Positions 1,062 through 21,295 of a stretch of 21,295 nt of DNA are shown piece after piece. Origin of the DNA: Thermodesulfobacteriota bacterium (GTDB lineage Bacteria; Desulfobacterota_D; UBA1144; Nemesobacterales; N074bin48); the NCBI GenBank assembly GCA_041572575.1, contig JBFFSH010000041.1, positions 1-21,295 of the forward strand. The letters run 5' to 3'. Every line of letters starts with the position of its first letter. The first letter of the stretch is position 1. The notes under the pieces were generated by a model that did no database searches, was not told the origin of the DNA, and saw only the letters and a list, made by a program, of their open reading frames with translations. The position numbers were made by a program, and so were the translations under genes.

Positions 1062-2093
1062 TTACTTAGCCATCAGTTTTTCATAACCCCCTAAAGTAGT
1101 TATCCAATCGGATAGGTCAGCCAAACCTTCATCAAACCCAATACTAGGCTTATATCCTAAATCCTTTTTAGCATTTTTTATAGAATATGTCCTGCTCCCT
1201 GCAATAGCAGCAACGGCAAATCTAGTTACTACAGGCGGCTTTGTCATTCCTGCTATTCTATATGATAGTTCGAGCAGACTGGCTATGGCATATCCAAGCT
1301 TATAAGGTATAAACATTTTTGGTGACCACTCTATTCCGGATGCTTTAAGAAGCATTGATATAAATTCGATATGATTAATGCTTCTTCCATCGTTTATAAA
1401 ATATATATTCCCCGATGATTTATCTGAATTAGCAGCCAGCACTGTGCCATCAATAAGATTGTCTATATGACACGGTGAAACTAACCCCTTACCATCTCCT
1501 GCAGGTATTAGCATGCCTTTATGAGCAGCTTTTAATATCCTTGGAAGTATTACAGTATCCCCTGCTCCCCAAACCCCTGAAGGTCTTATTACAGTAGTTT
1601 TCAAACCATTTCTATTATTATATGATAAAACCAGTTTCTCAGCCATGGATTTTGATTCATTATAATAATCATTATAGGTATCAGGATATGGATAGCTCTC
1701 GTCTATATCTAATATTTTGTGGACATCCCAAAAATCAGATCTCCAGACAACGCTTGATGTACTCAAATAAACAAACTTTTTAACTCCCTCACTTATAGAT
1801 TGATCTAGTAAGGCTTTTGTGGCTTCAAAGTTATATCTAATAAAATCTTCTTTTTTTCCAAAATCTGACACAAATGCTGCCAGATGAAAAACTGTATCTG
1901 ATCCTTTTACAAAATTTTGAAAAGAGTTAAAATCCCCTAAATCACCATAAATCTTTTCAACTTCTAAGTTTTTTAGGTTATCGAGATTGCTTGTTTTACG
2001 AACCAAACACTTTATCTCGTGATTTTCTTCTGCTAATTTCTTTAAAAGTTTACCGCCTATAAATCCTGTAGCGCCTGTTATAGATATATTCAT
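1062..2093 (-). CDS. NAD(P)-dependent extended SDR, 3beta-hydroxysteroid dehydrogenase/OleD-like
   Basis: TGATGFIG Rossmann motif, VFHLAA, YLSTSSV, catalytic YNESK, IRPSGVWGAGD. Confidence 0.85.
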   Translation of the reverse strand: MNISITGATGFIGGKLLKKLAEENHEIKCLVRKTSNLDNLKNLEVEKIYGDLGDFNSFQNFVKGSDTVFHLAAFVSDFGKKEDFIRYNFEATKALLDQSISEGVKKFVYLSTSSVVWRSDFWDVHKILDIDESYPYPDTYNDYYNESKSMAEKLVLSYNNRNGLKTTVIRPSGVWGAGDTVILPRILKAAHKGMLIPAGDGKGLVSPCHIDNLIDGTVLAANSDKSSGNIYFINDGRSINHIEFISMLLKASGIEWSPKMFIPYKLGYAIASLLELSYRIAGMTKPPVVTRFAVAAIAGSRTYSIKNAKKDLGYKPSIGFDEGLADLSDWITTLGGYEKLMAK

Positions 2094-3305: not shown

Positions 3306-3622
3306 TTATAAACTACGGCTAAGCATAGATAAGTAAATTGAGTTATACTCACTATTACTAACAGTAAGGCTAATACCCATCTCAAACTTATTTGTAAAAT
3401 AACACTGAGAGAGTCTTTTCACCTCACCTTCTAACTCAATTGGTTTGTTGAGATAGTAAACAAGCACTGTAACAGCAGTATTTTCGGGAATAGGATTGTC
3501 AGCTTTTACGGCAATACCATTTTCTGATATATTTGAAAGAGTTCCATCAAAATATGCCGGCTTAAGTAGCCATACTGCACTTTTTCTTCAAAAGGTATCC
3601 TATATGAGGTTCTTTGCTCCAC
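3306..3622 (-). pseudogene. Frameshifted stand-alone PilZ-domain gene (not in ORF track)
   Basis: GTG at 3622 gives MEQRTSYRIPFEEKVQYGYL. A second frame continues KPAYFDGTLSNISENGIAVKADNPIPENTAVTVLVYYLNKPIELEGEVKRL...FEMGISL...SMLSRSL* (TAA 3306-3308). The span is 317 nt, one short of a full frame. RxxxR and NxSxxG motifs are present. Confidence 0.85.
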
Positions 3623-3817: not shown

Positions 3818-4162
3818 TTAGGCTATCCTTGATAGATAGTTATAAATATTTGTCAGTTCTCCACTTGGGTTGGTAATTTTGATACCCATTTTATACTGGT
3901 TAGAGCTACTTTTACCTGATACCCAGGCAATTACTCCTTCAAGGTTAAGCGCTTTATTGCTGTGATCTAAGATAACATTAATTGGAGTTTTTTCTGGAAT
4001 AAAGTCTTGCGATTTTACTGATATACCCGTTTCTGATATATCATAAGAGACCGCTTCATAATAATCCTTTCCAGATTCACCAATTTGCGCTCTCTCCTGC
4101 AACTTTAATCTCAAAGATCCCCTACGCTCCATTTCTGACAATTTTAGATTATCCTCCCTCAT
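3818..4162 (-). CDS. Stand-alone PilZ-domain protein (c-di-GMP receptor)
   Basis: ERRGSLR (RxxxR), DISETG (DxSxxG), LEGVIAWV, MGIKI. The start could alternatively be TTG at 4141 or ATG at 4132. Confidence 0.88.
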   Translation of the reverse strand: MREDNLKLSEMERRGSLRLKLQERAQIGESGKDYYEAVSYDISETGISVKSQDFIPEKTPINVILDHSNKALNLEGVIAWVSGKSSSNQYKMGIKITNPSGELTNIYNYLSRIA

Positions 4163-10045: not shown

Positions 10046-10396
10046 TCAAGATTGTTTTTCTAATTTTGCATTCTCTTCAATCTTTTTAGCAAAATCCTGG
10101 GCAAAATGAGCAATCATATCGGCTAATTCTTTATTCTTTGTAGATTTATAATAAGTCTCAGCCATTTTCATAAACGTAAAGTAAAAATGCGCGTCCATCT
10201 CACCAATTTCCATATCATTTGTCCATAAATCAATACTAAGCGTGTTCTTAGCTACCCTATCCCACATTGAAATCATAATAGAGTCACAGGGTTTTTTCTC
10301 CTCAAACTCTGAATCCGTAGCTTCCCAGAATATGCTCTTAGGCACTTTTTGTTCATCTAATTGAATAGTAAATTTTATCTCGGCATCCTTTGACAT
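10046..10396 (-). CDS. gldC: GldC-family protein
   Basis: EIKFTIQLDEQKVP...W.A.D...SMWD...TLSIDLWTNDM...EM..F...MAETY matches the GldC pattern. Start at ATG 10396 has GGAG 8 nt upstream. Confidence 0.8.
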   Translation of the reverse strand: MSKDAEIKFTIQLDEQKVPKSIFWEATDSEFEEKKPCDSIMISMWDRVAKNTLSIDLWTNDMEIGEMDAHFYFTFMKMAETYYKSTKNKELADMIAHFAQDFAKKIEENAKLEKQS

Positions 10397-10460
10397 ATGC
10401 ACCACTCCGCTTTGATTTGTTTATAATGAAATTTTAAGTGGAAAATTAGCAGATTAAATA

Positions 10461-12380
10461 CTAATTAACCTCTGTACCAAGTATTCTTGCTACAGTATTA
10501 TGAATTTGGTTAATCGTAAAAGGTTTGTTTATAAATGAGTATGCTCCTTCTGCCATAACATCATCCCTTATTTCTTCAGGAGCCTTTCCTGTAATCATCA
10601 CTACCATAATACTTTCATTATACGTTTTTATTTCTTTAAGCACATCTAGCCCGTTTTTACCAGGCATTGTGTAATTTAGAAATACGATATCAAAATGATT
10701 AGTTTCTAAAATTTCCGATATATCATTACCATTATTTATTATAACTACATTGTGTCCAATCAGGGTAAGATATTCTTTTAATACGTTTCTAACAGAGATA
10801 TCATCATCTACAACTAAGACATTTGCTTTTCTTTTGGGATTTAAATTTATATTTCTGGGTTCAACATTTATTAGATTACTTGTAGCGCCGTTTGCAATAC
10901 GCTGAATATTCGGGATTCTTATTCTAAATGTAGTGCCTTTTCCGACCTCCGTGTTTACTTCTATTTTGCCTTCATGTCGTTCAATGATGGCATATACTAC
11001 AGAAAGTCCAAGACCTGTTCCTTCGAGTTCCGATTCATCATTTTTTGTTGTAAAAAATGGCTCAAATATCTTTGGCAGGTTTTCTTTCGGTATTCCACAT
11101 CCTGTATCTGAAAAATCTATTTTAACAAATTCATCTTCAATCTCAGTCTGTATTGTAATCACTCCACCACCTTCCATTGCATGCTTTGCATTTATTGCAA
11201 GATTTAAAATTACCTGTTGCATTTCACCGGGCTTCATACGTACGGGTGGAATTTTGCCAAAATATCTTAAAATATTGACCCCTTCTGATTCGAATGCGCT
11301 TTCTATTAGTGCAAGTGTGTCTTCTATTAAATCTTCTACAATAACAAGGTGATATTTTTCTTCATTGGTCCTGGAAAAAGTTAAGAGTTTATTTACTATA
11401 TCTGCTGCTCTGTCACTGGCATTTTCTACGATATGGAGATCACGGTTTATCTCTTCTATATTCGTACGGGTCATAGCTATGCTTGTATAACCCATAATTC
11501 CTGTGAGAATGTTGTTGAATTCATGTGCAATACCGGCTGCAAGCTGTCCTACAGCAGACATTTTGGCAGACTGAATTACTTGAGCTTCTAGCTTCTTTTT
11601 CTCAGTAATGTCTTCAGTAACAGCTATTGTTCCAAATATCTCATTGGTTTCAAAATCAACCAGCTGAGAAATACTGACCTTTAAAAATTTATCATCTTTT
11701 TTAATTTCATGTTTTGTAACATAAGCGGGATTATTTAGGATTTTCGGTAAAATAGTGGAAAAGTTAATTCCATCCATTATATCCGACAGGTCTTTCCCCA
11801 CACACTGCTCCCCGTATATCTCTGTTGTTGCCGGATTGGCTGTTAGAATATTTAGATCACAATCAGTAGTTATAATACTCTCTATAGTACTGCTATATAT
11901 GTTAAGCAGTTCCCTGTTTCTTTCTTTTACTTTTAGCTCAAGATTAGAGTTTAACTCTCTAAGCTCTCCAAGAAGTCTGTTTCTCTCCATTTTAAGCTGA
12001 TTGTTTTCTACAGCATGAACAATAATGCTCTTTAGTTTTTGATAATCCAGAGGCTTGGTTAAATAATCAAATGCACCTTGTTTTAACCCTTCAATCGCAG
12101 TTTCTATTGATGCATACCCCGTCATAATAACAAACGGCAGCTCGGGATTTTTCTTGCTTACTTCAGATAGCAGATCAATACCGCTCTTTTTGGGCATCTT
12201 AATATCTGAAAGAATAGTGTTGTATTCATTCTCACCAAAAAGCTGTAAAGCTTTCTCGCAAGATGTTGCAGTATCTACATGATATCCGTTTCTGGATAGC
12301 AGATCGTAAATTATCCTGAGGATTTCATGCTCGTCATCAACTACTAATACTCTTTTCTTCTGATCCTGTAATTGTATCAT
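10461..12380 (-). CDS. Cytoplasmic hybrid histidine kinase REC-PAS-HisKA-HATPase-REC
   Basis: N-terminal REC (VVDDE, SDIKMP, MTG, KP), coiled coil, PAS-like region ending EDITEKK, H-box AGIAHEFNN, NLAINA, DTGCGI, FEPFFTTK, GTGLGL, C-terminal REC with D-to-N. Confidence 0.93.
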   Translation of the reverse strand: MIQLQDQKKRVLVVDDEHEILRIIYDLLSRNGYHVDTATSCEKALQLFGENEYNTILSDIKMPKKSGIDLLSEVSKKNPELPFVIMTGYASIETAIEGLKQGAFDYLTKPLDYQKLKSIIVHAVENNQLKMERNRLLGELRELNSNLELKVKERNRELLNIYSSTIESIITTDCDLNILTANPATTEIYGEQCVGKDLSDIMDGINFSTILPKILNNPAYVTKHEIKKDDKFLKVSISQLVDFETNEIFGTIAVTEDITEKKKLEAQVIQSAKMSAVGQLAAGIAHEFNNILTGIMGYTSIAMTRTNIEEINRDLHIVENASDRAADIVNKLLTFSRTNEEKYHLVIVEDLIEDTLALIESAFESEGVNILRYFGKIPPVRMKPGEMQQVILNLAINAKHAMEGGGVITIQTEIEDEFVKIDFSDTGCGIPKENLPKIFEPFFTTKNDESELEGTGLGLSVVYAIIERHEGKIEVNTEVGKGTTFRIRIPNIQRIANGATSNLINVEPRNINLNPKRKANVLVVDDDISVRNVLKEYLTLIGHNVVIINNGNDISEILETNHFDIVFLNYTMPGKNGLDVLKEIKTYNESIMVVMITGKAPEEIRDDVMAEGAYSFINKPFTINQIHNTVARILGTEVN

Positions 12381-14889
12381 GATTATTCTCGTTATTTATA
12401 GGAAGGTGAATCGTAAAAGTTGTCCCCTCACCTTCAGTGCTGTTAACAACTATTTCTCCGTTGTGGCTTACAATAATCTTATAACTTATAGCTAGACCCA
12501 AGCCGCTTCCGGTGGTTTTTGTGGTAAAAAAAGGATCGAAGATTTTTGTGAGGTTTTCTTCACTTATCCCTACTCCTGTATCCTTAAAGTTTACTTCAAC
12601 ACAATCTGGTGACTTGCTGCTCATGCTTGTTGTAACATGCAATTTGCCACCTATCTCCATACATTGTGTCGCATTAATAAGCAGGTTAATAAAAACCTGC
12701 CAAAGTTGATTCTGATCACCCATCACCTGTGGAATGTCGGAATCTAAATCCACTTCTAATTCAATATTGCTATCGGTGAATTGCTTCTTAATTAATACTA
12801 TAGCATTTTCCAATATGCTGTTCAAATTTACTTTTTTAAAACTCGGTTCTTCTGGTTTTGAAAAGTTGAGAAGATTGTTAACAAGTCTGTTTGTACGAAC
12901 TACCTGATTTTTAATAAATTCCAGATACTCATCCACAACTTCCGCATTTCTGCCATGATCAACTTCAGTAGACAAGTAAAATCTTGCTCCTCCAATGATG
13001 TTAAGAGGATTTCTGATTTCATGGGCAAGTCAAGCTGCAAGCTGGCCTACTGCCGACATTTTTTCAGCCTGTATTAACTGAAGATGTGTCTGTATAAGCT
13101 CCTTATTGGTCTCTTCGAGTCTCGATGCATAGTCCTCAACCAGTCTGAATGCATTGGCATTTTCTACAGCTATAGCAGTTTGATTTGCAAGAGTTTTAAG
13201 AAGGCTTATGTCTCTTGAATTAAATAAAAGGCCTGATTTCTTATGTCCAAGTGATAGTATTCCAACAAGATCGTCTTTAAAGAACAGTGGCATTATAAGG
13301 GTAGAATTAAGCTTATTAAATGTAAGAATTAATTCGTCTTTAATATCATCGTATTTATTGTCTGAAATAAGATCTTCAAAAAATATCTCGTGTCTTTTTT
13401 GTATTAATGTACTAATGAGTTTATCTTCAACATCCAGATTAAAAGTAGAGGATTTTAGCTTCTCTAATGTTGTTACATTAACTTTATAAACAGATTGTTC
13501 TCTATCGAGCAGTAAAAATGTGGATGAATCTATCTGCATAGTGTCTGTAATAGTATTTATTATTTTTTTGCCTATTTCATCAATATTTAATATAGATGTC
13601 ATAGCCTCACCCAAATTATATATAGTTCTTTCATAGTCATACCGTTTTCTAAAAAATGCGCCGTCTATGATATTTTGAATCCTGTCCCTTACAGGGTTTA
13701 GAGCTACAACTAGAAATACGCTTAAGAAAACGAAAAATCCAGGACTTTTCCAACCCCCTTGAGAAGCAAACAGGTAATTGAATCCTAAGATCATTATAAC
13801 AATTGCAAAGCCAAGCACACCGGAAAGACCTGTGTATACCAATGTTTTCTGTATTATTATTTCAATATCAAATAACTTGTATTTAACGATTGCATAAGCA
13901 ATTGAAATAGGAAAGAATAAAACCGGTATAGTTAAAAAAGTAACATAATTAATACCGTATAAAATAATAATGATACAAGCAACTGTTGGTATGAAGAATC
14001 CGAATATTGAACCTAATAAAACAACCTGAGATCTCTGTTGATCTAACTTAGATTCAGGTTTTAAGTAGTTTTGAATAATGGATATTAAAAATAGAATGTT
14101 ACTTATAAGCATGTAAAACAGTATTATTATATCTATCAGTTTAATAATTCTAACATTATTTAGATATTTCAAATGAGCAACAAAAATTAGTGCAGAAAGT
14201 ATGAACGGAACAACTAAGATAAATTTATTCCTTAAATAGATTTGTTTCTTATTTGGAAAAACTAATGCAATAAATATCCAGCATGCAGGAGCAAAGATTA
14301 ATGCTAGATAGGAGATATTCAATGAATATATGATTGAGTATGTAGTTTGATAATCTATATCTTCTATAAACCAGATACCTAATGATAAACACAACAAGAT
14401 AAATGCCTTACTTTCAATAATATTTGGTCTTAAAAAATACACAATTGCTCCTGTTATTAGTAGAATAACTCCAGCAAAAAATTGAACACCAAATACTTGT
14501 ATCAGATCAAACAACTTAAATTCCATAGTAGGAATATTTAATGTTATTTTTTGATCATCACGTTCTACCAAATAAGTAATACTGGTACCTACTGGATATC
14601 TTGATATCATTTCATATACCTGTTGAGAGTTTGATATCTTTGTATTATTAACAGATATAATTCTATCGTATGATTTCGGTCCATCATTATCCTGACTTGG
14701 CCAATGTGGAAGTGATACCTGACTTACTGTAACAGTATTGAAAAGAAAAAATCCGGGGAATGGATTACCTTTCCATTTGGAAACCTGAACTATAGCATTT
14801 AAAGATAATAATACAGAAATAGTTAATAAAATTATTACCAATCCGTGAAAAATAGAAAATGACGTATTATTTTCATTCAATTTTGGCAT
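12337..14889 (-). pseudogene. Membrane sensor histidine kinase (periplasmic PDZ-like, multi-TM, GAF, HisKA, HATPase; 850 aa) interrupted by an in-frame TGA
   Basis: Track ORFs 13030..14889 and 12337..12975 share a frame. The junction reads GQLAA*LAHEIRNPLNIIGGARFYLSTEVD, with TGA at 13030-13032 at the conserved Gly of the H-box. Confidence 0.9.
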
Positions 14890-14921
14890 AATATGTTATT
14901 AAGTAATTTAGTTATAAATTT

Positions 14922-15710
14922 TCAATTTTTAAATTTTTTGGGATATCCAATTAAGTATGTAATTGATAACGGCTTCATAGGTGAATCTATTTTACCTATT
15001 TGCCATAAAAATCCATTATCACCAATTGAGTCAACCATATTTCTTAATTCATCGGGTGTATATGTCCTAAGATTGGAAATAAAACCATCCCAAGTATCCA
15101 ATATTGGAACTATTGGAATTATATAGGTCCAGAAAAACCTTGGAAAAGTAAAAGGTTTAATAAACGGTGTAACAATAAACATTAAAATTGGGGTAAGTAA
15201 CAAAGATAAAATTAAATTAACAATTTTTCTTTCTGTAAATTCAAAAATACCAATTGGGCTATTATTATTAATTGCATTTTGTAATATTAACTTTGCTTGT
15301 TCAGGAGGGAAATGGTGAAAACTTGTAAACATTGTGCGAATACCTTTTAGGTTAGATGGAATATCCATAGCGTCTATAGATCTATCTATGTAGTTAATGT
15401 TATCTTTATAAGATTCTATCTTCTGAATTGATTTCGTATTGGGATATTTGTCTGTAAACGTAACTTTTATTGGAAAATCATCACTTTCAAACATTTTATA
15501 AAATCTTAGTAATGGTCCAGAGCCTCCAGAGCATAGATCTATAATGTGATTGACCTTGAGTTGCTTCATAGTTTTTTGCAGCATAGGCGCTATAGAATCA
15601 TAAATTTTATACTTATCAATATCATATTGTATGGCATCAGTAATCATGTCTCTGAATATTATTGGTAGCCAAGCTTTATCTTCAAATTCAAATAGTTGTA
15701 ACCTTACCAT
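14922..15710 (-). CDS. Class I SAM-dependent methyltransferase, uncharacterised family
   Basis: IIDLCSGGSGP motif I, TDKYP, IDA, TSFHHF, IFE; hydrophobic C-terminal hairpin. Confidence 0.75.
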   Translation of the reverse strand: MVRLQLFEFEDKAWLPIIFRDMITDAIQYDIDKYKIYDSIAPMLQKTMKQLKVNHIIDLCSGGSGPLLRFYKMFESDDFPIKVTFTDKYPNTKSIQKIESYKDNINYIDRSIDAMDIPSNLKGIRTMFTSFHHFPPEQAKLILQNAINNNSPIGIFEFTERKIVNLILSLLLTPILMFIVTPFIKPFTFPRFFWTYIIPIVPILDTWDGFISNLRTYTPDELRNMVDSIGDNGFLWQIGKIDSPMKPLSITYLIGYPKKFKN

Positions 15711-15765
15711 TTATATTTTTTTATATATGATTTCATATTGAATTTTAGTAGTTATATTATTTACA

Positions 15766-16794
15766 TCAATTAAGTTTAGATTTAAGTAATGCTGACACAC
15801 CTCCAATAGAATCTATCCATAATCTTAGTTTTAGAAGACCATCATTAAAAGAAAGATTAGGCGCATAATTCAGTTCATTACAAGCTCTTGATATTTTATA
15901 ATTTAGATTTCTGTTTAAGACAGATACTACGTAACGTGTTAACATCGGTTCACAATTATTGATAATATATTTTGCATATAGTTCAGCTAAATAAGCACAT
16001 CCATAAGCTATAGAATAAGGAATGGATTTAGGGGTCCAGTCAATCTGAAGTTCATTTAAAACACCTTTTAGAAATTCATACAATGTTATGTCATATCCAT
16101 CATGTACAAAATAGACATTACTTTTTAATTTTTCAATTTCACCCATTGCAATCATAGCATCTGTTAAATTATCTACATAACAGATTGAAATTTTATTATC
16201 TCCCTTACCAACAAGGAATAATTTGTCATCATTCGCTAATTCGAGTAGTCTTGGAAGAACAACATTATCTCCATGTCCCCAAACCCAACATGGCCTAAGA
16301 ATTCCTCCATCGATTTCATCATTATTGATCAAATTCAACAACAATTTTTCCGATAGCGCTTTAGTTTCACAATAGGGGTGTTTATATTTAACTGGATAAG
16401 GATAGTCTTCATCTATATTTATATGATGTTCGTATTTCCAAACAGTGTCGGTTGTACTTAAATATATAAATCTTTTAACTTTATTTTCTAAGCATGAATC
16501 AAGCAGCAACCGGGTTCCCTCGACATTAACCTCATAAAAATCTTCATATTTGCCCCAATCTGATACTTTAGCAGCACAGTGATAGACAATTTCAACATCT
16601 TTAGTAGCTTTTTTTAATGATTGAGTATCTGATAAATCTCCATAACATAATTCAACACCCAGACTATTTAAATTCTCTACATTACTAGTAGGTCTAACAA
16701 GAGCTGAGACATTATAATCTTTTTTAACAAGTTTTCTTGTTAAATTTCCACCAATAAATCCAGTCCCTCCGGTTACTAATACTCTATTAGACAT
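15766..16794 (-). CDS. NAD(P)-dependent extended SDR, 3beta-HSD/OleD-like ketoreductase
   Basis: TGGTGFIG, VYHCAAKVSDWG, NVEGT, YLST, catalytic YCETK, LRPCWVWGHGD. Confidence 0.85.
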   Translation of the reverse strand: MSNRVLVTGGTGFIGGNLTRKLVKKDYNVSALVRPTSNVENLNSLGVELCYGDLSDTQSLKKATKDVEIVYHCAAKVSDWGKYEDFYEVNVEGTRLLLDSCLENKVKRFIYLSTTDTVWKYEHHINIDEDYPYPVKYKHPYCETKALSEKLLLNLINNDEIDGGILRPCWVWGHGDNVVLPRLLELANDDKLFLVGKGDNKISICYVDNLTDAMIAMGEIEKLKSNVYFVHDGYDITLYEFLKGVLNELQIDWTPKSIPYSIAYGCAYLAELYAKYIINNCEPMLTRYVVSVLNRNLNYKISRACNELNYAPNLSFNDGLLKLRLWIDSIGGVSALLKSKLN

Positions 16795-16838
16795 TCAGAT
16801 TATATTTATTGTTCAAGTCATTTATTAGTCATTATTTT

Positions 16839-18485
16839 TTAAGCAGCAGAAGATATGTTCTTATCTGTTGCTGAATTTTCATCTATTACTCCATACTCTT
16901 TTCCTACTCTTTCAAGAATTTCTATTGTTTTATCCAGATCTTCTTTTGTATGAGTTGACATAACAGTGAGTCTGAGTCTTTCTTTACCCACCGGAACGGC
17001 AGGATAAGGGAAATAACTGAGATATATCCCCTCCTCCAGAATTTTTGCAGCCATTTTCTTACCTATAACATCATTACCAATAATAACTACGACAATTGCC
17101 GAATAAAAATCCAGCAAATTAAATCCCAGGGCTTCTAGTTTTTCTCTTACATAATTTACATTTTTCATTAATGTTTCTATCTTTTCAGGCTCATTTTCCA
17201 TAATTTCTATTGATTTGAGGGCTGATGCAGCAACCTGTGGAGGGAGATTGCATGAAAAAACGCTGGATCTACCATAATGTCTAAGATAGTTAATTACCTC
17301 TTTGGAAGCACCAACAAAACCGCCTACACACCCAAGCGCCTTACTCATGGTTCCTACTACTATATCGACCTCCCCTTCCATTCCAAAATGACTTATTGTA
17401 CCCCTTCCATTTTCTCCAATTATTCCCATGGCATGAGCATCATCAACCATAACCTTAGCATCGTATTTCTTCCCCAGTTCTACAATCTCTGGAAGCGGAC
17501 AAATGTCCCCCTCGGTACTATATACCCCGTCTACTATTATTACTTTCCCATTATATTTAGATTCACAACTTTTAAGTACTCTTTGCAGATCATTCATATC
17601 CGAATGTCTGAATGTTCTCATTGTAGCTCCGGAAAGTGCTACTCCGTCCAAAATACTCCTATGTGCAAGTCTGTCTAAAATAGCTACATCATCTTTCATA
17701 ATTAAACCTGAAATAACACCCAGGTTAGCCGTATAACCTGATGGGAAGAGCATTATCTCCTCACAACCTTTTATTTCTGCAAGCTTTTTTTCCAGTTTTA
17801 CATGGACATCATAGGTACCGGTATGCATGGGTGCGCCTACTGAAGAACCACCGTACTTTTTTAATGCTTTTTCACCAGCTTTAATGACTTCAGGATGGTA
17901 TGAAAGACCAAGATAGTTACCACTGCCCATATTTATTTTTTCTTCTTTTTTTCCCGTAACCTCATCAAACAGCATTAGTCTGTTTTTTGAAGCAGTAAGC
18001 AGATGTTTTCTTAATGTGTAATTACCTTTCTCTTTCCAGTCTTCTACATATGACCAGAATTTATGTGTTTTCTCAAATATGTCCTTTGCAGGTATGTTAA
18101 CAAAGTCTGCTAATTTATAGTCATCAGAATCTACATTTAGTTTTAAAACTCTTGATTCAATAAAGTCCTCAAGACGCTTTTTGTCTGACTTATCAATTAT
18201 GACAAACTTAACTTTTAAGCCTGACAACATATTATCCTGCTCTGAATCCTTTATCCCGGTATTCTTAACTTCACTATATGTCTTGATGCTGAAATGAGTA
18301 TTGGGTAGTTTAAATTCCAAAAGAAGTTTAGTGTTAGGTTCAATTACAGTATCTGTTTCTATAAACATTCCATCATTTGATAATTTGCCGGAACATCCTA
18401 ATGTTTTTCCAATGTTTTTAGAAAATATATCAATACCTGAGAATGGTATGGATACTGTTGAAACGTCAGAAGATGATTGGTTCAT
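16839..18485 (-). CDS. PLP-dependent alpha-oxoamine synthase (SPT/KBL/BioF/CqsA superfamily) with N-terminal PilZ-like domain
   Basis: SGNYLGL, FPSGYTAN, HRSILDG, FRHSD, DGVYSTEGD, DDAHAMG, GTMSKALG (PLP lysine), RLRLTV. The first ~110 aa resemble PilZ (LSNDGMFIET, LEFKLP, GLKVKF). SD AAGGAG is present. Confidence 0.88.
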   Translation of the reverse strand: MNQSSSDVSTVSIPFSGIDIFSKNIGKTLGCSGKLSNDGMFIETDTVIEPNTKLLLEFKLPNTHFSIKTYSEVKNTGIKDSEQDNMLSGLKVKFVIIDKSDKKRLEDFIESRVLKLNVDSDDYKLADFVNIPAKDIFEKTHKFWSYVEDWKEKGNYTLRKHLLTASKNRLMLFDEVTGKKEEKINMGSGNYLGLSYHPEVIKAGEKALKKYGGSSVGAPMHTGTYDVHVKLEKKLAEIKGCEEIMLFPSGYTANLGVISGLIMKDDVAILDRLAHRSILDGVALSGATMRTFRHSDMNDLQRVLKSCESKYNGKVIIVDGVYSTEGDICPLPEIVELGKKYDAKVMVDDAHAMGIIGENGRGTISHFGMEGEVDIVVGTMSKALGCVGGFVGASKEVINYLRHYGRSSVFSCNLPPQVAASALKSIEIMENEPEKIETLMKNVNYVREKLEALGFNLLDFYSAIVVVIIGNDVIGKKMAAKILEEGIYLSYFPYPAVPVGKERLRLTVMSTHTKEDLDKTIEILERVGKEYGVIDENSATDKNISSAA

Positions 18486-18572
18486 AATCCCTTCTCCTTA
18501 ATAAAGTAAATTCTTTGATGTTAATACTACAGACCTGTTAATTTTATATTGTATTAAATTTATGCAAACAGA

Positions 18573-19247
18573 TCAACTACTTTTTTGTGATAATATACTT
18601 TGATAAGCTATAGGGCCATGTTTAAATAATCTGATATATGTAACATCTACCAATTTTAGGTCAGAATCTGTGATATATTTTGGATAATCATATACGCAGT
18701 GAAGTGGGGCAAGACCCTGTATCCAGTATGAACTGTTGGCTAGTGCATGATAAAACCACTGAAATGAACTATATAATATATTGCCTTGTGGAGCAGCGAA
18801 ATCTGCTATAAGGAGCTTCCCACCTTTTTTTAAAAGACTTGATAAATGTTCCAAAACCTGCTTCATTACAGGCTCAGGGAATATATTCAAAAAATAGTTC
18901 GCGGTTACAACATCATAATAACCAGGCCTGTCATGCTCCATTATATCAGCACAAATGAACTCCCCGTTATCCAGATTATTGTTGGCAAAATATTTTTTTG
19001 CATTTTCTAGCATCTTTGAAGAAAGGTCCACACAAGTAATATGTGTATTTTTCTTGGCAGCCTCTATTGCATCTTCGCCAGATCCAACCCCTGCATACAA
19101 GATTCTGTCACCGGGATGAAAATGAGCTACCTGTACAAGTTTTGATGCCTTGATCTTGCCATTTGAATATATGTTAGCCATAAACTCATAATGGGATGCA
19201 ACGGCATCATAGTTCCTACTATTAGTAGAATTATTATTAACAGCCAT
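18573..19247 (-). CDS. Class I SAM-dependent methyltransferase (UbiE/PmtA-like)
   Basis: YDAVASHY, RILYAGVGSG motif I, VDLSSKML, YDVV, LKKGGKLLIADF. Confidence 0.85.
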   Translation of the reverse strand: MAVNNNSTNSRNYDAVASHYEFMANIYSNGKIKASKLVQVAHFHPGDRILYAGVGSGEDAIEAAKKNTHITCVDLSSKMLENAKKYFANNNLDNGEFICADIMEHDRPGYYDVVTANYFLNIFPEPVMKQVLEHLSSLLKKGGKLLIADFAAPQGNILYSSFQWFYHALANSSYWIQGLAPLHCVYDYPKYITDSDLKLVDVTYIRLFKHGPIAYQSILSQKSS

Positions 19248-19285
19248 GATATTTATGTATGAGCTGTACTATATAAGCAATTTAA

Positions 19286-21133
19286 TTAAAGACCAAAATA
19301 AGCTCTTTGATTTAACGAGCTGTTCCCCTTCCATGTCTTAATTATATTATCAAGAGTGAAGATAAACCGCCCCTGAATAGAATATATACTACTTGATGGA
19401 TTTGATTCATTCAAATCAGATATTGTCCCCTCTAATAAAGCGCGTTGACTTAGCAAATCATCGAGACCGTCTCCAGCAAATATATAACTGCCAATAAGGT
19501 CAAACCACAAATGATCCATGATTTTCCAGGTAAGAGTCCCTTCAAGTTCTGTTCCCAGATATTTATTTACTGCCGGCAGGGGTGTTAATCCATCAGTACC
19601 CAGCAGAGCATTTCTTTCATCAGTCCAAGCAAATAATATTTGTGGAGTAAAATACAAAGAGTTTGATAGATTAAGTGTAGTATGAGCTTTTACATAACCT
19701 GAATTTATTACACTGCCCTCAACTGCATAAATATTTGGAATAACGTGTTTAAATAATAAATTATCAATTACATATGCATTATTAAAAAATATAGCATTAC
19801 CTTCTAGTTTATCAGGTGTGGCAGAATCGTCCCCACTTGACCATCCAAATTCTGTTACTATTCTATCTACCCTATTTGTGGGAGGATTATATCCCAGCCT
19901 GCCTACAAACAAGAAATTTTCAGTAGTTATATCAATTTCAGAATCTCCAATTACAGAAGGGAGCGGATCATCCAGATCACTTAATTTGCCAAAGATATTC
20001 TCAAACTCAAACGCAAGGTAAAATGGATCTTTATCATATTTACCATACAGTGACCATACTATAGGGTTATCGAGATCAGCTCTAAGGCCATTACTTACAT
20101 TAAACTTCTCCTGGTTTACCAAATAAGCATATCCCCCAAATTCAAAATTATCTCCAAAATATAAGGCTCCTAATCCGCCCTCCCATCCATTACCTTCTGC
20201 CCCCCTGCTTAGAGTCCTTCCCTGACTTAATATATCGAAGGTAAATACTAGGATTAATCTTTCCCATGCTCCGCCAAGTGGTGTGAATGGAGCAGTATCA
20301 AATTCAAACCTGTCCACAATTGTACCAAAATCCTGATCAGGGAGGCTTCCTGCGTTTGCGAGTATACCTAAAGCCCAATCGTATGGTTGTCTTCCAAACC
20401 ATAACTCTCCTACCGGTGTCTTTGCCATAAAATATAAAGTTCTTATATCAAAGAAATCAATATCCTGATCAACTGCAGAGATAGTATTTCCTGAAAAGGT
20501 ATCAGTTACATCTCTCAAAACAGCCCCCCGGAACGAATCTGATGGACTTGGAGCTACAAATACCTTATCTGCAGAGTTTTCGTCTCCTATACCACCCCAT
20601 ATGATGTTTCTGGCTACATCAATCTGTGAGCGTAGGGAAATATTTTCGTTAACTTCAAGCATTGGGGATATCATTAGTCTTGAATCTGCAAAAGCTATCT
20701 GATCCTCTGTATTAGGTGTTGCTCCCAAGAACGTAGCATTTTCTATAAGTCTTGCCCTGGATCTGAAATAGCTTGGAAAATCAGGATTGAACTTAACTTT
20801 GGGAAAATAACCCGTAAGCGGCTCTATTTTTGAATTAATTACCTCTTCCAATTTGCCCTCGGTTTGCTTACTATCTGCCTTTAGCTCTTTAACCTCTTCC
20901 TTGTCAGTCTGCCTATCGGCTTCCATCTGTTCGATTTTTTTCTTGAGGTCATCGATTTGCTGCTGGCTTTTTTGCTGAATCTCTTCTATCATTTTTTGGT
21001 TTTCAATCTGAATCTGTTCTATTTGCCTTTTAAGAGATTCAACCTGATTGTTAAGCTGCTCTGAGCTTAAGTGGGGAGTGTAAATAAGAAATAACGCAAT
21101 AATTAATACAATACCTTTAATAATGCTTTCCAT
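19286..21133 (-). CDS. Outer-membrane beta-barrel protein with N-terminal coiled coil (resembles deltaproteobacterial porins such as the TIGR04551 type)
   Basis: Signal peptide, Q/E/K-rich coiled coil, YFRSR, TPVGELWFGRQPYDWALG, DFGTIVDR, LGTELEG beta-strand motifs. The real start is ATG 21133 (SD AAGGAGA at 21148-21142); the track's start at 21169 lies inside the IS IR. Confidence 0.75.
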   Translation of the reverse strand: MESIIKGIVLIIALFLIYTPHLSSEQLNNQVESLKRQIEQIQIENQKMIEEIQQKSQQQIDDLKKKIEQMEADRQTDKEEVKELKADSKQTEGKLEEVINSKIEPLTGYFPKVKFNPDFPSYFRSRARLIENATFLGATPNTEDQIAFADSRLMISPMLEVNENISLRSQIDVARNIIWGGIGDENSADKVFVAPSPSDSFRGAVLRDVTDTFSGNTISAVDQDIDFFDIRTLYFMAKTPVGELWFGRQPYDWALGILANAGSLPDQDFGTIVDRFEFDTAPFTPLGGAWERLILVFTFDILSQGRTLSRGAEGNGWEGGLGALYFGDNFEFGGYAYLVNQEKFNVSNGLRADLDNPIVWSLYGKYDKDPFYLAFEFENIFGKLSDLDDPLPSVIGDSEIDITTENFLFVGRLGYNPPTNRVDRIVTEFGWSSGDDSATPDKLEGNAIFFNNAYVIDNLLFKHVIPNIYAVEGSVINSGYVKAHTTLNLSNSLYFTPQILFAWTDERNALLGTDGLTPLPAVNKYLGTELEGTLTWKIMDHLWFDLIGSYIFAGDGLDDLLSQRALLEGTISDLNESNPSSSIYSIQGRFIFTLDNIIKTWKGNSSLNQRAYFGL

Positions 21134-21158
21134 CCCTACTATCTCCTTAATAAATAAA

Positions 21159-21176
21159 GGAGCTCGCATAGGACAG
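21159..21176. repeat. Terminal inverted repeat (IRL) of the IS
   Basis: 17/18 match to the reverse complement of 121-138. Confidence 0.85.
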
Positions 21177-21198
21177 CAAAGTATACTAAGCTGAAACT

Positions 21199-21295
21199 AT
21201 GCAAAAGAAGTTACTTAAGAATACAAAACTATCAAATAGTAAGATAAGCAAGCTAATACAAATGTTTGTATTGGAAGTGCCGGCATGTAAAGCGG
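21199..21295 (+). CDS. IS1595/IS1016-like transposase, 5' fragment (not in ORF track)
   Basis: MQKKLLKNTKLSNSKISKLIQMFVLEVPACKA, open to the window edge. It resembles the IS1016-type N-terminus (KxxLSxxKxxKLIxxFVxxVxAxxA). Confidence 0.75.
   Translation, partial: MQKKLLKNTKLSNSKISKLIQMFVLEVPACKA

Follow-up and report, generated by a model that had tools for sequence, protein, structure and literature searches.

A candidate make-and-sense amino-ketone signalling module in Dadabacteria whose synthesis genes and sensor half are exchanged together

In this study, we analyzed a 21,295-nucleotide stretch of DNA from a Thermodesulfobacteriota bacterium (JBFFSH010000041.1 in GCA_041572575.1), hereafter called the window, which is the whole of contig C41 of a 2.6-Mb source genome (37% GC, 96% complete). 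It carries a PilZ-fused alpha-oxoamine synthase in one gene set with two histidine kinases, the membrane sensor kinase HK1 and the hybrid kinase HK2. By the names of its homologs, the genome belongs to Dadabacteria. Across this phylum, lineages have exchanged the synthesis genes jointly with the sensor half of HK1, while the kinase backbone stayed constant. We consider it likely, with a probability of roughly 0.7, that this module makes and senses an acyl amino-ketone signal that is tailored in each allele and perceived through HK1 and HK2. A first, sequence-only reading of the window had proposed a make-and-sense lipid signal system of seven genes. Its central pair of synthase and kinase, paralleling CqsA/CqsS, withstood those of its refutation tests that were run, but the seven-gene composition is not conserved, and the N-methylated sphingoid-like base it gave as an example of the product is unsupported.

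The seven minus-strand genes of that reading (10461..21133) were all reproduced, with gaps of 38, 87, 44, 55, and 32 nucleotides and one 44-nucleotide overlap if HK1 is read through an in-frame TGA at 13030-13032 (Table 1). The domain types it had named were also recovered by Pfam and NCBIfam, namely Aminotran_1_2, 3Beta_HSD/epimerase, class I methyltransferase, PDZ/HisKA_7TM/GAF/HisKA/HATPase, and REC-PAS-HisKA-HATPase-REC. In addition, the synthase carries a PilZ-like domain at its N terminus, which that reading did not mention.

Conservation was assessed in 120 Dadabacteria genomes. A profile of the PilZ-linker part detected the synthase in 35 of them, and a sensor profile detected HK1 in 42, including 34 of the 35 with a synthase; the kinases are thus co-conserved with the enzyme. 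The sole synthase genome without HK1 (G004, locus L126) has its synthase at a contig edge, and this enzyme has lost the lysine that binds pyridoxal 5′-phosphate (PLP). Among the eight genomes with HK1 only, two harbor a distant paralog beside dnaE/ftsY, four are cut by contig ends, and two (G018 and G001) have no synthase between aroC and HK1. As the synthase is missing from 85 of the 120 genomes, it is not a housekeeping lipid enzyme.

We examined 42 genome stretches, 36 of them with the synthase. HK1 was found in 33 and HK2 in 31 of these 36 loci, in the same order and with the misses at contig ends; HK2 follows HK1 in 31 loci, and the remaining five end at contig edges. The gene aroC lies near the module in 26 of the 36 loci, and the module order is kept where aroC was left behind, as in the window, L105-L107, and L118. 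Because this order is fixed while the slot genes and the methyltransferases MT1 and MT2 vary, the conserved unit is the synthase, a variable slot, HK1, and HK2, not the seven-gene set. MT1 and MT2 were found in none of the other 119 genomes, and an ortholog of the short-chain dehydrogenase/reductase (SDR) occurs in 2/36 loci.

The strongest evidence for the pairing of synthase and kinase is co-variation between the synthesis genes and the sensor half of HK1. Of 41 loci with complete synthase, HK1, and HK2, seven near-duplicates were dropped, leaving 34, with HK2 as the backbone control. Synthase distance correlated with that of the HK1 PDZ domain (partial r 0.59) and of its seven-transmembrane (7TM) part (0.67), each with 0/2000 permutations, whereas the values for transmembrane helices (TM) 8-9, GAF, and kinase were −0.01, 0.09, and 0.09. 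Sliding windows showed that the sensor half was replaced near residue 320 in L124, L145, L118, and L106. For example, L145 and L109 are 93-96% identical in aroC, TM8-9, kinase, and HK2, yet identity falls to 53% for the synthase, 43% for the acyltransferase, and 36% for the 7TM part. Similarly, L117 and L112 share 96% of the synthase and 97% of HK2, while their acyltransferases are 76% and their 7TM parts 62% identical, and L106 and L107 share 92% of the synthase and 47% of the 7TM part, with different slot genes. In none of the 57 pairs with an HK2 identity of 88% or more had one side alone changed; both sides had changed in 31 pairs and neither side in 26. The constant boundary and the lack of any changed enzyme beside an unchanged sensor fit the prediction of a cognate ligand. 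By analogy, the pattern is that of pherotype cassettes, such as the polymorphic comQXP signaling loci of Bacillus (as presented in the available text of PMC4408185). In the window, the GC content is 31% in the SDR gene, 29% in MT2, and 28% in the sensor half, compared with 34-38% in flanking genes, bearing in mind that membrane proteins have lower GC anyway.

The synthase retains the PLP residues H275, D348, H351, and K382. It scored below the cut-offs of three Spt (serine palmitoyltransferase) models (365/640, 335/500, and 295/670 bits, score/cut-off), of the BioF and Kbl models (362/426 and 377/460), and of the CqsA-family model NF005526 (224.5 bits, cut-off 428). A sequence search of the PDB likewise placed CqsA (E 1e-37) far behind Kbl and Spt (1e-83). 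In a 66-row tree, built without CqsA and with 14 generic Kbl/Spt-like loci as references, the family forms a 38-row clade of its own (99/94), and both the Spt clade (99/93) and Kbl/BioF/HemA (93/91) are separate from it. When contigs were scanned with the whole synthase, the 80 loci obtained were all generic Kbl/Spt-like ones lacking the PilZ part, and in a plasmid search no CqsA-type synthase was named among the 60 of 711 matches listed. That the enzyme is just a BioF or Kbl, a case which the sequence-only reading had itself raised, is contradicted by its position outside that clade and by a separate BioF in the source genome (contig C68, 470 bits, above the family cut-off). The amino-acid gatekeeper position, equivalent to V79 of the Thermus enzyme ThAOS, is Ala218 in the window, with Val, Ala, Ile, or Ser occurring in the family as a whole; according to the accessible part of PMC11906848, this residue contributes to the selection of the amino acid, and Spt has Ser there. 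With a synthase that does not group with Spt and carries Ala in place of the Spt serine, an N-methylated sphingoid-like base is unsupported. The PLP lysine has been lost in the synthases of L104 (9400-11052), L158, L159, and L126, those of L104 and L159 still being in an intact frame. Two pattern-based calls, on the lysine of L123 and on the second PilZ motif of L101, proved to be artefacts when checked against the alignment.

The motifs RxxxR and D/NxSxxG bind cyclic di-GMP (c-di-GMP) in PilZ domains. Both are kept in 26 of the 28 family members listed and both are lost in the window copy; RxxxR is likewise missing from the closely related copies P0002, P0003, and P0005.

The slot between the synthase and HK1 holds an acyltransferase, an SDR, a Zn-dehydrogenase, a methyltransferase, or nothing. 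Over the 36 synthase loci, slot and accessory genes comprise 24 acyltransferases, nine barrels, two SDR orthologs, two other methyltransferases, and one Zn-dehydrogenase; among these loci, MT1 and MT2 are found in the window only. The commonest slot enzyme is a ceramide-synthase-like acyltransferase, a full-length homolog of E. coli YghO (25%, E 3e-37), which is named the acyl-CoA N-acyltransferase of dihydroceramide synthesis in the part of PMC9386255 available. Orthologs of the window SDR (51-52%) occupy the same slot in L105, L151/L152, and L172/L173. The SDR is 27% identical to the E. coli candidate reductase, no closer than unrelated SDRs are. A second extended SDR in the window (1062-2093, minus strand) is 40% identical to the cluster SDR and 43% to the slot SDR of L105, and may share its chemistry.

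The two methyltransferases proposed by the sequence-only reading fared differently. MT1 is recognized by Pfam; it is present in one of the 120 genomes, the window's own, and a 54% ortholog lies between the barrel and the synthase in metagenome locus L183. MT2 matched no Pfam or NCBIfam model, and its assignment comes from the motif-I-like DLCSGGSG and from Atlas neighbors named class I SAM (S-adenosylmethionine) methyltransferases. It too occurs in the window's own genome only, with 2133 homologs among 2555 candidates in other lineages, and it was probably gained recently. These 2133 matches make MT2 a representative of a large uncharacterized family almost without Pfam coverage. PDB sequence searches with the acyltransferase, MT2, and the barrel returned nothing useful.

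HK1 is predicted to fold into TM1, a PDZ domain, a seven-helix bundle, two further helices, and a GAF domain (pLDDT 80). The 7TM part matched folds resembling G-protein-coupled receptors (GPCRs) with Z 14-15.7 over about 200 residues, and Foldseek gave matches to GAF and PDZ only. CqsS and LqsS were absent from the fold-match lists of HK1, whose sensor consists of PDZ and HisKA_7TM, no direct sequence comparison with CqsS or LqsS having been made. In an alignment of 59 HK1 rows (53 distinct, 786 columns), Asp177, in the second helix of the bundle, is present in 14 of 15 loci with a porin and no acyltransferase (L101 has Ile) and in none of 29 loci with an acyltransferase, the sole such column of the 786. 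An acidic residue at this position fits a model in which the product would retain a free amine.

Other lineages have rebuilt the layout of channel, synthase, tailoring enzyme, and sensor from unrelated parts. A metagenome scan yielded 58 loci, some of the Dadabacteria type and others in which members of the same synthase clade stand in different surroundings. Of the latter, L184 encodes FadL, a fusion of PilZ, synthase, and FemAB-like parts, and a kinase; L187 encodes FadL, a synthase, and a kinase; and L188 a synthase, a FemAB-like protein, and a kinase. L192/L193 comprise a 7TM kinase, FadL, acyltransferase, synthase, 7TM kinase, REC-ketosynthase, methyltransferase, and SDR. The L193 sensor is homologous to the HK1 7TM part (E 3e-7), the N-terminal sensor domains of the L187 and L188 kinases are weakly V4R/AraC-like, and that of L184 resembles them by eye. 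The receiver fused to a beta-ketoacyl synthase in L193 (13120-14811) possibly provides a phosphorylation-controlled supply of acyl chains.

For the chemistry, transport, binding, control, and output of the module, we infer the following scheme. The PLP enzyme would condense an acyl-CoA or acyl-ACP (acyl carrier protein) with a small amino acid into an acyl amino-ketone, likely a diffusible signal, under c-di-GMP control via PilZ in most relatives but probably not in the window copy. The enzyme encoded in the slot would set the final structure. Most relatives would N-acylate the product with the ceramide-synthase-like enzyme, while in the window the SDR would reduce it and the methyltransferases possibly methylate it, yielding a charged amino-alcohol. 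Non-acylated, polar forms may cross the outer membrane through the porin. The product would then bind the 7TM bundle of HK1, with Asp177 pairing with the amine, and HK1 would alter phosphorylation of the first receiver domain of HK2. Joint swaps of synthesis genes and sensor half on the constant kinase backbone would create private dialects.

Several observations weigh against this scheme. The synthesis genes adjoin the sensor half, so linkage alone moves both, and crossover would naturally occur in the conserved stretch near residue 320; the joint travel of the parts is expected because they are linked. The 57 pairs are not independent, and their thresholds were chosen after the co-variation data had been seen. 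A GPCR-like fold score near 15 exceeds only modestly what helical bundles score by chance. When mapped on a cytoplasmic-half tree (46 rows, the incomplete L101 left out), Asp177 and the gene content with which it is associated each change three times, and the independent contrasts agree in 3/3 cases (p 0.25), a number of contrasts that cannot reach significance. L101, L104, L124, L159, L176, and L181 have neither an acyltransferase nor Asp177, and all of these except L101 also lack the porin. Two of the four loci whose synthase has no PLP lysine, L104 and L159, still encode an intact HK1 next to the enzyme. L196, L200, L201, and L203 belong to the synthase clade and have no kinase in the retrieved DNA. 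Finally, a similar sensor is found away from any synthase and on an RsbU phosphatase.

It is improbable, though worth weighing first, that the product is a ceramide-like membrane lipid through which HK1 monitors the cell's own membrane for homeostasis or envelope control, with no role between cells. The YghO-type slot enzyme belongs to a dihydroceramide N-acyltransferase family, the set of synthase, acyltransferase, and SDR mirrors Spt/bCerS/CerR (as far as the available text of PMC11087976 describes it), and co-variation of enzyme and sensor fits any cognate ligand. However, the synthase neither falls in the Spt clade nor has the Spt serine, the annotated neighbors include no ACP or acyl-ACP synthetase, and no YghO-like gene gave a tblastn match in the source genome, 96% complete. 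A structural lipid would also not be expected to come with wholesale swaps among genomes that are nearly identical, with orphan receptors, or with outer-membrane channels dedicated to it.

Conflict could have generated the same diversity, if the product were an antagonistic or defensive amino-lipid and the sensor told self from non-self or triggered protection. The same cassette swaps and orphan receptors would be expected, and accessory tailoring genes are often gained; but the locus has no conserved efflux gene or immunity-like gene, and the c-di-GMP enzymes flanking L105-L107 point to lifestyle regulation, which leaves this explanation with little probability. A chance operon, in which a metabolic oxoamine synthase sits beside unrelated kinases much as aroC is often near without being part of the module, is scarcely credible given that the module order survives loss of the aroC neighborhood, that the sensor half follows the synthase while the adjoining half does not, and that other phyla rebuild the layout from unrelated parts.

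Whichever ligand is made, the window copy of HK1 is interrupted. The position of its in-frame TGA is Gly in all 29 HK1 orthologs listed, and contigs spanning it keep the stop in 4/4 runs from four studies; since three of them show differences from the window at other positions, they do not come from its own assembly. An assembly error was ruled out on this ground. Recoding as selenocysteine or Gly was ruled out as well, with no selA, no tRNA-Sec among the tRNAs found, and TGA ending other genes of the operon. The sequence-only reading had treated the codon as something to repair, whereas the stop is fixed in the sampled populations. Downstream of it, 5/61 near-invariant positions deviate, the most among 46 rows; two of these deviations are shared with the intact relative P0061, and one position is still ancestral in run X15, which already carries the stop. 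We read this as an apparently recent nonsense mutation followed by early decay of HK1. It is unlikely that the TGA is read through at a useful rate to give a low-abundance active kinase. The frame stays open downstream, with no further stop or frameshift, the kinase half shares 75% identity with that of P0061, and TGA with a following C, as here, is the least frequent TGA context of the source genome (24/246), but the use of TGA as a terminator in the same operon, the lack of selA and tRNA-Sec, the Gly of the orthologs, and the deviating positions all speak for a genuine stop. With HK1 ending before the phospho-accepting His, the species is probably deaf to its own signal. It retains an intact orphan paralog of a different sensor type, encoded at the ancestral aroC site (L129:9447-11969 in G000 contig C40), 43% identical to HK1 and without synthase, HK2, or Asp177. 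L129, L135, and L131 each encode an HK1 receptor at the aroC site with no synthase, and these orphans are candidate eavesdropping receptors. The distant HK1 paralog (22-27%; L137-L143) is conserved between dnaE and ftsY in several Dadabacteria.

The outer-membrane barrel was supported by structure prediction. The predicted structure is a porin fold (major outer-membrane protein MOMP, Z 17.0; OccD2, Z 16.9; AlgE, E 1.6e-12), apparently AlgE/OprD-like and not of the FadL lipid-channel type: a FadL homolog appeared in the fold list at Z 10.3, versus Z 16-17 for 18-stranded porins, and Pfam gave no Toluene_X match. The barrel family is present in 103/120 Dadabacteria genomes, and its nine top-scoring copies are those of the synthase loci, which suggests that the window barrel is a locus-dedicated paralog of a Dadabacteria-wide porin family. 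The family itself is unnamed and is a candidate major outer-membrane protein. The start at 21133 given by the sequence-only reading is preferred over an ATG at 21169, because the latter falls inside a repeat end. In the window assembly, this repeat end lies 25 nucleotides upstream of the first start codon of the gene set; in runs X8 and X10, contigs go on with different sequence at 21158, and the repeat site appears empty there. A promoter and terminator scan found sites no more numerous than in shuffled sequences.

Table 1 Coordinates of the features in the window and the basis on which each was assigned
Feature	Position	Strand	Basis
Hybrid kinase HK2, REC-PAS-HisKA-HATPase-REC, predicted relay partner	10461..12380	-	Pfam/NCBIfam
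Sensor kinase HK1: TM1, PDZ, 7TM bundle, two more TM helices, GAF, HisKA, HATPase	12337..14889	-	Pfam and predicted structure
In-frame TGA at conserved Gly, three codons 5′ of the phospho-accepting His codon	13030..13032	-	Contigs of 4/4 runs, 4 studies
Exchangeable sensor half of HK1, residues 1 to about 325	13915..14889	-	Mosaic breakpoints; follows synthase
Asp177, second helix of 7TM bundle, candidate counter-ion for free amine	14359..14361	-	Column comparison across loci
Methyltransferase-like MT2, uncharacterized, variable slot	14922..15710	-	Motif-I-like DLCSGGSG; Atlas neighbors; GC 29%
Extended SDR (3Beta_HSD/OleD-like), predicted keto-reductase, variable slot	15766..16794	-	Pfam/NCBIfam; GC 31%
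PilZ-fused alpha-oxoamine synthase, predicted signal synthase	16839..18485	-	Pfam, NCBIfam, alignment, tree
Degenerate PilZ domain	18150..18443	-	Without RxxxR and D/NxSxxG
Class I SAM methyltransferase MT1, accessory	18573..19247	-	Methyltransf_25, E 1.9e-17
Outer-membrane beta-barrel porin with N-terminal coiled coil	19286..21133	-	Predicted structure, pLDDT 66, pTM 0.72
High-copy repeat end, insertion-sequence-like	21159..21295	.	24 copies at contig ends of source genome

Other genes were noted around the module. A GldC-like gene (10046-10405, minus strand) lies directly 3′ of HK2, and GldC and enoyl-CoA hydratase neighbors recur near the module in L120. Tandem stand-alone PilZ-like genes are found in the window at 3818-4162 and about 3333-3554 (minus strand). 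REC-HD-GYP genes flank the module in L105-L107 and L118, with GGDEF or EAL genes in L105 and L107, consistent with a link to c-di-GMP. A small unannotated, possibly exported protein (L102:11279-11752, with homologs in L118, L120, L124, L131, and L176) is encoded next to the module on the opposite strand.

In a search of a mostly open-access body of literature, we found no report combining PilZ, an oxoamine synthase, and a histidine kinase, nothing on HisKA_7TM with GPCR, and nothing on serine palmitoyltransferase with PilZ, a sensor kinase, and an autoinducer. Among the matches listed for Dadabacteria quorum sensing, no such system was apparent from the title or the start of the abstract. The synthase clade may be part of the tree of Spt homologs that accompanies PMC11334938 as supplementary material. 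Whether all parts combine into a widespread, undescribed form of quorum sensing by sphingoid- or ceramide-like amino-ketones, with GPCR-fold kinases, a c-di-GMP gate in PilZ, cassette dialects, and a deaf estuarine producer with an orphan receptor, is in our judgment evenly balanced. If it were so, a chemical class of bacterial signal would be built with ceramide-synthesis enzymes, in an uncultured phylum for which we found no described signaling system. Matched alleles of enzyme and receptor would then allow direct assignment of ligands for the HisKA_7TM sensor family, and Asp177 offers a testable residue. It would also follow that oxoamine synthase and bCerS homologs side by side in metagenomes do not always indicate membrane sphingolipids.

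Compared with known systems, the module resembles CqsA/CqsS of Vibrio, LqsA/LqsS/LqsR of Legionella, and JqsA in that an alpha-oxoamine synthase is encoded with a membrane sensor kinase (PMC5289986, in the text available). The Dadabacteria synthase, however, is far from CqsA, both in its score against the family model and in the PDB ranking. To our knowledge, the PilZ fusion, the variable slot, the porin, the PDZ/HisKA_7TM/GAF receptor, and the REC-PAS-HK-REC partner are not parts of CqsA/LqsA systems. With Spt/bCerS/CerR it shares PLP condensation, an N-acyltransferase of the YghO/bCerS family, and an extended SDR, but its synthase does not belong to the Spt clade and is accompanied by a sensor kinase in 34/35 genomes, its acyltransferase is often fused or absent, and its SDR is a distant relative of the E. 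coli candidate. The outer-membrane channel recalls Sinorhizobium, where FadL imports long-chain acyl-homoserine lactone signals (according to the available part of PMC9938287); FadL stands in this position in L184, L187, and L193, whereas the Dadabacteria barrel has a predicted AlgE/OprD-like porin fold. In its mode of exchange the module resembles peptide systems of Gram-positive bacteria, with which it has no homologous component except the kinase core, the predicted signal here being a small acyl amino-ketone in a Gram-negative lineage. Staphylococcus agr is a pherotype cassette with a receptor-domain boundary. Bacillus comQXPA, too, combines polymorphic synthesis and receptor genes with a conserved output backbone and thereby forms separate communication groups (PMC4408185, in its available text).

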